A DNA stretch of 64,000 nucleotides, taken from Escherichia phage vB_EcoM_11B_SA_NWU. Positions 38,435 through 49,799 of this stretch are shown in pieces; position 1 is the first letter of the stretch; each line of letters begins with the position of its first letter. Position numbers and translations under genes: made by a program. Where the stretch lies: the sequence record OR062527, one strand, 5' to 3'. The notes beneath the pieces are model-generated. The model did not search any database and was not told the origin of the DNA. It saw only the letters and a list, made by a program, of their open reading frames with translations.

Positions 38435-40022
<1,588 letters not shown>

Positions 40023-47284: not shown

Positions 47285-47515
47285 TTATTGTTCAATCAGT
47301 CCCATATAAAATTCTGCGTCTTCAGAATCCATGCCGTCACAATATTCATTAGCCATAAAGCGGGTGAGGTCTTCAAGAGGACCTTCAATGACAATAGAAA
47401 AATTGCAATAATTGGGATCATCATGAATACTTGTGATACTAAGTTCAGGATAACGATTACGAACAATTTCTTCAATGTATTCAAAATCAACGATGTCAAT
47501 ATCAACTTTAGCCAT
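47285..47515 (-). CDS. Hypothetical acidic protein downstream of gene 32
   Basis: 76 aa from MAKVDIDIV with SD agagga; longer track ORF would overlap gene 32. Confidence 0.5.
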
Positions 47516-47528
47516 ATCATTTTCCTCT

Positions 47529-48461
47529 TTAATTATCAGCAATATTGCCGATAGTTGTATAGTACCATGGAAGAACAGGGAGGTCCGTGTCATCAGCACT
47601 AGATGAACTGCCAGAGCTTGAGCTCATAAAATCATCTTCAGTTTTTGTATTGAAGTCATCAACATTGAATGCATCCAAATCATCAGCAACTTTATCAGCT
47701 TTCTTAGCGGCAGTCGCTGCGGCACCACCCATAGCAGCAGTTCCCATAACTTGACTGAACTTAGTGCTCAGTTCTTCAAACGATTTGAATTTATCTTTAG
47801 AAGTCATTTCAGAAAGGTCAACCATTTGTTCGAACAGTTCTTTCTGGAAAGATTCATCATCAATGTTTGGAATCGCAGATTGATTCAGGAATTTAGATTC
47901 GTCGTAGTTACTAAAACCAGAAACTTGTTTAACTTTCAGTACAAAGTTAGCACCTTCCCACGGACAAGTTACATCAACTGGAGTTTCACCCATTTCAACA
48001 TCAACTGCAATCATTGCATTGATTTTATCCCAGATTTTCTTACCGAAGCGGTATTTAAATACTTTACCTTCATTTTCTGGAGCAGCTGGGTCTTTTACTA
48101 CAAGAATGTTAGCCCAGTAAGAAGTTTTACGTTTAACAAGACCGTACTCTTTATTGTCAGTATTGTACAAATCATTTTTACTGATGTACTGACATACTGG
48201 ACAAGAATCGTAATCACCGTGAGTAGATGAACATGTTTCAATATACCATTTACCATTTTTCTTGAAACCGTGATTTACAAGAATTGCGAATGGTGCTTGT
48301 TCATCATTTTTAGACGGAAGAAAACGAATTACTGCTTGACCGTTACCCGCATTATCGAGTTTCAGTTTCCACTCGCCTTTATCTTCAGAAGAAAAACCTT
48401 TATTGCCATTCAGTTTAGCCATTTGTGCAGCAAGTTCAGCAGTAGATTTACGTTTAAACAT
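47529..48461 (-). CDS. 32: Single-stranded DNA-binding protein gp32
   Basis: 310 aa; MFKRKS...[18 protein letters not shown]... recognised as T4 gp32; acidic C-terminal tail. Confidence 0.95.
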
Positions 48462-48521
48462 TTTATTTCCTTTTTAATTTATTTAATTAACAGTTGGTGC
48501 TATGACACTTTACCTCATAGC
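48462..48521 (-). promoter_or_regulatory. Gene 32 autoregulatory translational operator: AU-rich leader plus upstream pseudoknot-forming hairpin
   Basis: Minus strand gcuaugagguaaagugucauagcaccaacuguuaauuaaauaaauuaaaaaggaaauaaaAUG; stem GCUAUGA/UCAUAGC. Confidence 0.6.
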
Positions 48522-49144
48522 TGGCATAATTTACAATACTCTGGGTCTTCGAGAGGTATCCAACCTGAGTTGAAATACTTTACCATCGATTTAGCAGTTG
48601 TATCGGTTATATTTATATTACCTTTAACTCTTCGCCATCCAGGAGTTTTACCATACAGATTAGAAGATAATAACACATAATTCTCGTAAGCAATATGAGA
48701 TAATTTCCAAGACTCTATATTAGCTCGTGATGTTTTCCAAGGTCTGAAATCGTCACGGTTCATATAATTAGCCAATCTCATATGCTCTCTAACTTCCGGG
48801 TCTTTAGCTGGATGAGTTTCACCACTCACACCAAATCCACCGCCAGCATATACCAGATTAAAATAGTCTGGATTATCTCTGGCATTTACTTCAAGTTGGT
48901 ATTTTCGCTCTGCTTCAATAACATTCAAGTCATCATCAATTTGAATTATTTTAACGTTCGGTTTTTGAAGCATTACCGCATTCAAAAATCTTTTTTGTTT
49001 ACATGAGCTCCAGTATTCCTTTCCGGAAGAGTCATATATTATTCCGTTCTCAAATGAGCAATTTAATTTACTACCGATATAGTAGTATGGCGGAGTCTTA
49101 TTTTTGACACGGTCTTCAAATGTAAACCAATATACTATATTCAT
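48515..49144 (-). CDS. Putative GIY-YIG homing endonuclease (SegG-like) between genes 59 and 32
   Basis: 209 aa; N-terminal IVYWFTF ... YYYIGSK resembles a degenerate GIY...YIG motif; position matches T4 segG. Confidence 0.45.
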   Translation of the reverse strand: MNIVYWFTFEDRVKNKTPPYYYIGSKLNCSFENGIIYDSSGKEYWSSCKQKRFLNAVMLQKPNVKIIQIDDDLNVIEAERKYQLEVNARDNPDYFNLVYAGGGFGVSGETHPAKDPEVREHMRLANYMNRDDFRPWKTSRANIESWKLSHIAYENYVLLSSNLYGKTPGWRRVKGNINITDTTAKSMVKYFNSGWIPLEDPEYCKLCQL

Positions 49145-49145
49145 A

Positions 49146-49799
49146 TTAATACTTGCAAGATTTCACAGTTTCAATAAAAACACTTTTAGCTTTCTGTGAA
49201 TCGATATTTAAAATTTTTCTATAAGCTTTTAACTTTATAGAATAATTGTTCCAGACTAAATTATCAGTCTGTTCATCATGTTTATCAATTATATTTAAAA
49301 ACGAATCAAGCAAGATAAACGTCTCAAACGAAATTATATTCGATTGAAGTAGTTTAAAAATATAACTTGATTGAACTTTTGGATTATACTCAAAGATTTC
49401 TTTAAAAGCAGAAACTTCAACTTTTTTACTAAAATAATAAATGTTGCGAATATCTTCTTCAAACTTAAATTTAATTTGCTTTAAGCGTCCGATATATTCA
49501 CGATAAAACACAAGTGCATCAGCGTCAGAGATGTCACCAATCCAAGCATCTTGGTTAGCAACCAGATTGCTTATAAAGATTAAAGCAAGTTCCTTTAATT
49601 TATATTTTTCTGATAACTTCTGGAAAAAATACTTATCCCTTCGCTTTTGATAAGCGGCATCAGACACCCGCATGCACCAATTATACTTAATTACATCATA
49701 CTTTCCATTCATATGTTGTTTTATCATTAAGTATAATTTATAAACTGATTTACCATCAATGTATCTTTCACCACCAGCAGGCATGCGGAGTTTAATCAT
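49146..49799 (-). CDS. 59: Helicase loader gp59
   Basis: 217 aa as T4 gp59. Confidence 0.9.
   Translation of the reverse strand: MIKLRMPAGGERYIDGKSVYKLYLMIKQHMNGKYDVIKYNWCMRVSDAAYQKRRDKYFFQKLSEKYKLKELALIFISNLVANQDAWIGDISDADALVFYREYIGRLKQIKFKFEEDIRNIYYFSKKVEVSAFKEIFEYNPKVQSSYIFKLLQSNIISFETFILLDSFLNIIDKHDEQTDNLVWNNYSIKLKAYRKILNIDSQKAKSVFIETVKSCKY

Follow-up and report, generated by a model that had tools for sequence, protein, structure and literature searches.

The 209-codon open reading frame (ORF) between genes 59 and 32 of Escherichia phage vB_EcoM_11B_SA_NWU (record OR062527) is, with high confidence, segG, the Tequatrovirus free-standing homing endonuclease gene, which encodes a two-domain protein with a divergent GIY-YIG N-domain. 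The window, i.e., the whole stretch of DNA that was analysed, comprises 64,000 nucleotides, and all positions below refer to it. The megablast analysis of the region showed that it belongs to a T4-like phage (Tequatrovirus), with 390 phage records matching at 90–99% identity. The gene and its neighbours are arranged as follows:

49146–49799, minus strand: gene 59 (helicase loader), the upstream neighbour (ORF and annotation of a homologous record).
48515–49144, minus strand: segG coding sequence, 209 amino acids and stop, assigned as a free-standing GIY-YIG homing endonuclease (ORF list, T4 SegG identity, PHROG 7504 and annotation of homologous records).
47529–48461, minus strand: gene 32 (ssDNA-binding protein), operator-regulated, the gene targeted by T4 SegG in segG-less phages (ORF, annotation of homologous records and PMC2988022 Table 1).

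A preliminary description made from the sequence had placed a 209-aa ORF at 48515–49144, where segG lies in T4, and both statements were borne out. The frame is intact from the ATG (49144–49142) to the TGA (48517–48515) on the minus strand, and the gene order 59–segG–32 and the orientation are identical to those of T4. Only 1 nt separates the gene 59 stop codon (TAA, 49148–49146) from the segG ATG, and 53 nt lie between the end of segG and the gene 32 ATG at 48461. No obvious ribosome-binding site of its own was found in the sequence ahead of the segG ATG; this, together with the start so close behind the gene 59 stop codon, indicates that segG is probably read from the gene 59 transcript. The ORF is not a chance one, because the same frame is intact, at 210 aa, in nine of the ten other segG-carrying loci, and about 140 phage records hold segG.

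The ORF product is identical to T4 SegG (NP_049855) at 205 of 210 residues (98%, E 6e-160) over its full length, and PHROG 7504, "homing endonuclease", covers it end to end (E 3.7e-131). Based on these two results, the ORF is segG itself; the relationship to SegG suggested in the preliminary description was right, while its wording "SegG-like putative" was too cautious, as the alignment with T4 SegG that it proposed identifies the ortholog. Homologous records likewise annotate the corresponding ORF as segG. Compared with T4 SegG, the protein of this phage is one codon shorter, Leu158 being deleted in a TTA repeat, and carries the substitutions L57V, S63N, D74N and E205K. The codon changes between the two genes comprise eight synonymous and four non-synonymous ones, none of them at a family-invariant position. 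The Leu158 deletion, S63N and D74N are unique to this phage among the segG copies compared. As a homing endonuclease, T4 SegG (gene 32.1) belongs to the free-standing GIY-YIG enzymes (Liu et al. 2003, J Mol Biol 334:13, cited in PMC2988022, PMC535899 and PMC2330249). SegG (formerly 32.1) is listed among the enzymes with demonstrated activity, its insertion site being given as between 32 and 59 and its target as gene 32 (PMC2988022 Table 1); when T4 is crossed with T2, SegG causes the gene 32 markers of T2 to be excluded (PMC2330249).

The 3' end of segG runs into the translational operator of gene 32, the parts of which are:

48499–48526, minus strand: gene 32 translational-operator pseudoknot (28 nt identical to T4; hairpin in the minimum-free-energy fold; PMC535899).
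48526–48523, minus strand: stem 1, 5' strand, UGCC.
48522, minus strand: unpaired A.
48521–48515, minus strand: stem 2, 5' strand, GCUAUGA.
48514–48511, minus strand: stem 1, 3' strand, GGUA.
48510–48506, minus strand: loop, AAGUG.
48505–48499, minus strand: stem 2, 3' strand, UCAUAGC.
48462–48498, minus strand: unstructured part of the operator, with UUAAA/UAAA repeats and the Shine-Dalgarno sequence (AAGGAAAU, 48472–48465) (sequence and alignment; role from PMC535899).

The gene 32 operator of T4, T2 and T6 consists of an RNA pseudoknot and UUAAA repeats (McPheeters 1988 and Shamoo 1993, cited in PMC535899), and the T4 pseudoknot is described as experimentally mapped (PMC535899). The same organisation of the autoregulatory operator was found here: an H-type pseudoknot, every nucleotide of which agrees with T4, stands ahead of the UUAAA/UAAA-rich leader and the Shine-Dalgarno sequence. 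Stem 2 is present in the RNA minimum-free-energy fold, and the pairing of stem 1 was checked by eye. The RNA fold z-score of the 77-nt leader (-0.89) is not significant, which is expected when the hairpin is short and the leader deliberately unstructured, so that the sequence identity with T4 carries the argument. The gene 32 operator is not represented by a family in Rfam, the search of which gave chance-level matches only.

The segG codons TGC CAG CTA TGA (48526–48515) share 12 nt with the pseudoknot and supply the 5' strands of both stems; the pseudoknot starts exactly at the third-last segG codon, and the segG stop codon lies inside stem 2. The overlap of the gene with the pseudoknot-forming hairpin had already been recognised in the preliminary description, and it amounts to 7 nt of the hairpin; the range given there (48492–48521) is nevertheless incorrect at one end, which reaches 7 nt beyond the 3' end of the stem at 48499. 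Borjac-Natour et al. 2004 reported that the segG reading frame and the gene 32 pseudoknot overlap in the 5' part of the latter, and suggested that segG extended into a pre-existing pseudoknot, giving rise to a chimera (PMC535899). The leader of this phage is 2 nt shorter than that of T4 owing to two single-nucleotide deletions, one of which changes UUAAAUUAAAUUAAAAA of T4 into UUAAAUAAAUUAAAAA, while the other shortens the stretch from the Shine-Dalgarno sequence to the AUG by one A. Relatives also differ in how many AAUUA repeat units the gene 32 leader contains.

Gene 32 has its middle and late promoters inside segG, and the transcript is processed by RNase E (PMC2988022). Two candidate sites were located in the 3' part of the gene, their exact positions being presumed from the sequence:

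48667–48692, minus strand: candidate MotA-dependent middle promoter of gene 32.
48610–48617, minus strand: TATAAATA, candidate T4 late promoter of gene 32, within segG.

The candidate middle promoter consists of a MotA box core TGCTTA (48692–48687), a 14-nt spacer and TATTAT (48672–48667), and a second MotA-like box lies at 48975–48966. Both TATAAATA and the MotA-box-like sequence are common to the 3' part of this gene and of T4 segG. They are plausible late and middle promoters, respectively, and would correspond to the promoters mapped in T4. As a separate observation, the loss of Leu158, i.e., of one TTA of (TTA)3 (48667–48680, codons about 156–160), overlaps the TATTAT -10-like element and removes one of two possible -10 registers; this loss is unique among the 10 intact segG copies compared.

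The analysis of related phage records showed that segG is present in about 140 of about 510, while the remainder (about 370) have an empty 59–32 site of about 100 nt. A gene present or absent at a fixed site in collinear genomes has the distribution of a homing gene. Compared with T2, homology ends right after the gene 59 stop codon and resumes at CCAGCTATGAGG inside the pseudoknot. The association of alleles with the gene was analysed in 11 loci with segG and nine without (20 in all, a small sample). IMG/VR supplied just four close Tequatrovirus loci, to which 12 GenBank loci were added. The T4-type stem 1 (UGCC/GGUA) and loop 2 (AAGUG) occur in all 11 loci with segG and never without it, whereas the T2-type pseudoknot allele (UGACC/GGUCA, loop UACAUCG; region -65 to -46) occurs in all nine segG-less loci. 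The fixed differences between the two groups of these 20 loci are confined to the gene 32 leader, 3' of the ORF, and reach -46. Because these alleles co-segregate with segG, the cassette appears to bring its own version of part of the pseudoknot and to reach beyond the stop codon of segG.

The gene 32 coding sequence contains no fixed difference, and the association with segG is partial at +52..+63 and at +261..+319. Flanking markers are thus linked to the cassette in the manner of co-conversion, with fixed differences in the leader and partial association in the gene 32 coding sequence. The second of the two clusters falls in the following segment:

48140–48205, minus strand: gene 32 +257..+322, with alleles partly associated with segG; a possible SegG cleavage or recognition region (association table and T4/T2 alignment).

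SegG reportedly cuts about 332 bp from its insertion site, and the second association cluster would lie roughly at this cut site. Unlike T4 and most phages with segG, this phage has a gene 32 that is T2-like (the segG-less type) at +261, +273, +292 and +319. Judging by these positions, it is possibly a recombinant that combines the endonuclease with a sensitive target allele. If gene 32 +257..+322 were the target of SegG, the self-immunity of the phage would be unexplained.

The 3' end of gene 32 also differs from its relatives. Between this end (47529–47585, minus strand) and the frd.3-like ORF (ATG near 47515), there is a 105-nt deletion compared with T4, T2 and KMB39. It removes the last eight gene 32 codons (DDLLNDL and the stop), the GC-rich terminator hairpin with its T-run and a GTTTACA -35-like element of the downstream promoter. 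The gp32 of this phage is 310 aa long, the end of its acidic C-terminal tail being lost and other residues standing there. The best matches among 504 and 531 phage records all consist of two pieces that are about 105 nt further apart than in this phage, and the deletion junction is shared by none of the 20 aligned loci. The deletion may be genuine and viable, or it may stem from an error in the assembly.

The SegG protein is divided into the following parts:

48830–49144, minus strand: N-terminal catalytic domain, about residues 1–105, GIY-YIG fold in which the beta1-beta2 hairpin is extended and a small hairpin is added (residues 30–37).
48728–48829, minus strand: linker, about residues 106–139, with a THP..E..R.. 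segment resembling the I-TevI linker and NUMOD3 motifs (pLDDT, BLASTP and NUMOD3 in relatives).
48518–48727, minus strand: C-terminal helical domain, about residues 140–209, presumed helix-turn-helix DNA-binding domain.

The AF2 structure model is of low confidence at the start of the linker (pLDDT below 50 at residues 102–108). The conserved residues of the N-domain are Y5, R12, Y22-I-G-S-K26, Y44, S47, E79 and N96. This domain recurs in 503 representative clusters with variable C-termini, and variable C-termini on a common N-domain represent the typical modularity of GIY-YIG homing endonucleases. NUMOD3 (Pfam) follows the same N-domain in 36 of 67 sampled cluster members, and weak Pfam matches to SegE_GIY-YIG (PF19835) were found in four of the 67 sampled distant relatives. 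Elsewhere in the window, a 136-aa ORF with a canonical GIY-YIG pattern is present at 39612–40022 (minus strand), presumably denA, encoding endonuclease II; a simple motif scan revealed no other GIY...YIG ORF among those of 100 aa or more in the 64,000-nt stretch.

The GIY-YIG domain is defined by N-terminal "GIY" and "YIG" motifs on two adjacent beta-strands (PMC1564403). The N-terminus of SegG reads MNIVYWFTFEDRVKNKTPPYYYIGSK and its I-TevI counterpart GIYQIKNTLNNKVYVG. In the structure model, I3-V4-Y5 lies on the strand of residues 2–8 and Y22-I23-G24 on that of residues 21–26, and at least 66 of the 67 distant relatives share each of Y5, Y22 and G24. The IVY...YIG stretch had been read in the preliminary description as a degenerate GIY-YIG pattern with a longer spacing than canonical, and both points hold: the two motifs are on strands with their tyrosines and G24 conserved, and 16 residues stand between Y5 of "IVY" and Y22 of "YIG", compared with 10 in I-TevI. 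The model also has the alpha/beta fold of the GIY-YIG family. In the BLASTP alignment of SegG residues 67–120 with I-TevI residues 64–112 (E 0.006 for the pair, 31% identity), the catalytic E75 is matched by E79 and N90 by N96. E79 is invariant (27/27 close and 67/67 distant relatives), and N96 is found in 27/27 and 66/67, respectively. As regards the catalytic Arg, Glu and Asn, the conservation of which had been raised in the preliminary description, the Glu and the Asn are thus present, whereas the canonical central Arg is doubtful. The sole Arg near the position of I-TevI R27 is R52, at the start of the helix of residues 51–59; it is present in the SegG of both this phage and T4, and occurs in 20 of 27 close and three of 67 distant relatives. 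Better-conserved candidates are R12 (26/26 close, 49/67 distant), K26 (27/27 and 65/67) and Y44 (27/27 and 66/67).

Compared with I-TevI (catalytic domain PDB 1LN0/1MK0), SegG shows an identity of just about 17%. According to the model, the insert between its motif tyrosines forms a short helix containing R12, and where I-TevI has the helix bearing R27 and H31, SegG has the small beta-hairpin (residues 30–37) and a conserved K-x-Y-x-S/G-S segment. The zinc finger of I-TevI was not detected in SegG, and SegG is free-standing whereas I-TevI is intron-encoded.

An alternative view is that the IVY...YIG pattern is coincidental and that the protein belongs to another nuclease or DNA-binding family. 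The profile searches in which a GIY-YIG match had been anticipated detected none: Pfam and NCBIfam scans of SegG gave nothing at E ≤ 10, with no match to PF01541 or PF19835, none of 28 SegG homologs has a precomputed Pfam domain, the SegG family profile gave noise only and no nuclease against PDB sequences, and hhalign of the SegG family alignments against I-TevI recovered the C-terminal NUMOD3-like stretch as the sole part. The E-values of the Foldseek comparison of the model with the PDB, at about 1, point the same way. When hhalign was forced to a global SegG/I-TevI alignment, the probability was 0.3% and the motif mapping was ambiguous. It paired a second motif, Y44-x-x-S47 (Y-x-G/S-S, residues 44–47), with the I-TevI YVGS, and because of this preference the assignment of the YIG motif is itself ambiguous, which again speaks for a coincidental pattern. 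The homolog search with the I-TevI catalytic domain returned nine near-identical fragments, too few for a canonical GIY-YIG profile. We consider a coincidental pattern extremely improbable. We read the missing match to curated profiles as a limit of model sensitivity and not as an exclusion from the GIY-YIG superfamily.

Another possibility is that the ORF is an inactive remnant, a decaying endonuclease gene retained solely because the promoters of the essential gene 32, an RNase E site and one half of its operator pseudoknot lie in it. Such embedded signals would be a reason for retention without nuclease activity (PMC2988022), the segG of this phage has a unique codon deletion, and the canonical Arg is weakly conserved. 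Moreover, a metagenomic locus from IMG/VR (L006, IMGVR_UViG_3300045988_128797) carries a +1 frameshift at codon 53 and has kept the whole cassette. In this locus, an extra T in a T5 run of segG results in a 64-aa product, with the rest of the cassette intact; either this copy is decaying or the homopolymer was misread in sequencing. Against a remnant stand the full-length ORF with every family-invariant residue, including E79 and N96, the 98% identity to a T4 enzyme that is active according to the literature, the excess of synonymous over non-synonymous changes (8 vs. 4) along the whole gene and not just its 3' regulatory part, and the intact frames of nine of the ten other segG copies. The weakly conserved central Arg is no argument for inactivity, since the near-identical T4 protein is reported to be active. 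The preliminary description had considered that the gene could equally be an inactive remnant; with an intact gene whose differences from T4 avoid the conserved positions, we consider this unlikely, and infer that the 209-aa variant is active.

The present analysis shows the orthology, the fold, the conserved Glu and Asn, the presence or absence of the gene at its site and the overlap of the sequences, and the nuclease activity, the target gene, the promoters and the RNase E processing are derived from the literature. An active segG would be expressed from the gene 59 transcript. In a mixed infection, SegG would, by orthology with the T4 enzyme, cut both strands of gene 32 in a co-infecting relative without segG, and recombinational repair from the segG-carrying genome would transfer segG, together with the flanking gene 32 markers, to the genome that was cut. 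The outcome would be intronless homing and marker exclusion. According to a general statement in a review, the cuts made by Seg enzymes are hundreds of bp away from the insertion site and not within 25 bp of it. Signals required by the essential gene 32 also lie in the 3' third of segG: its two promoters, middle and late, and the 5' strands of stems 1 and 2 of the operator pseudoknot, where gp32 binds and thereby represses its own translation. These embedded gene 32 signals would make the cassette hard to lose.

A more far-reaching proposal, which we regard as tentative and rather unlikely, is that the SegG/SegE-like clade (503 clusters, 67 sampled) is a distinct GIY-YIG variant, in which the R27/H31 helix is apparently replaced by a beta-hairpin and the active site is completed by K26, Y44 and/or R12, and that a SegG-sensitive T2-type allele of gene 32 stands beside segG in this phage. 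If the sensitive allele is indeed present, either self-immunity would be independent of target-site polymorphism or a recent recombination would have uncoupled the endonuclease from the immune allele.

SegG, its assignment to the GIY-YIG family, its gene 32 target, the internal promoters and the pseudoknot overlap have all been described in papers from 2003 to 2010. As both halves of the feature, the identity of segG and the overlap with the operator, are published, it is already known and ordinary, and it is minor as a discovery. Of specialist interest are a GIY-YIG clade that is missed by standard profile libraries, the apparent lack of a conserved central Arg in the SegG clade and the perfect co-segregation of the T4-type pseudoknot allele with segG in the 20 loci compared. 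The locus is a clear example of a selfish endonuclease cassette taking over the regulatory signals of an essential gene.
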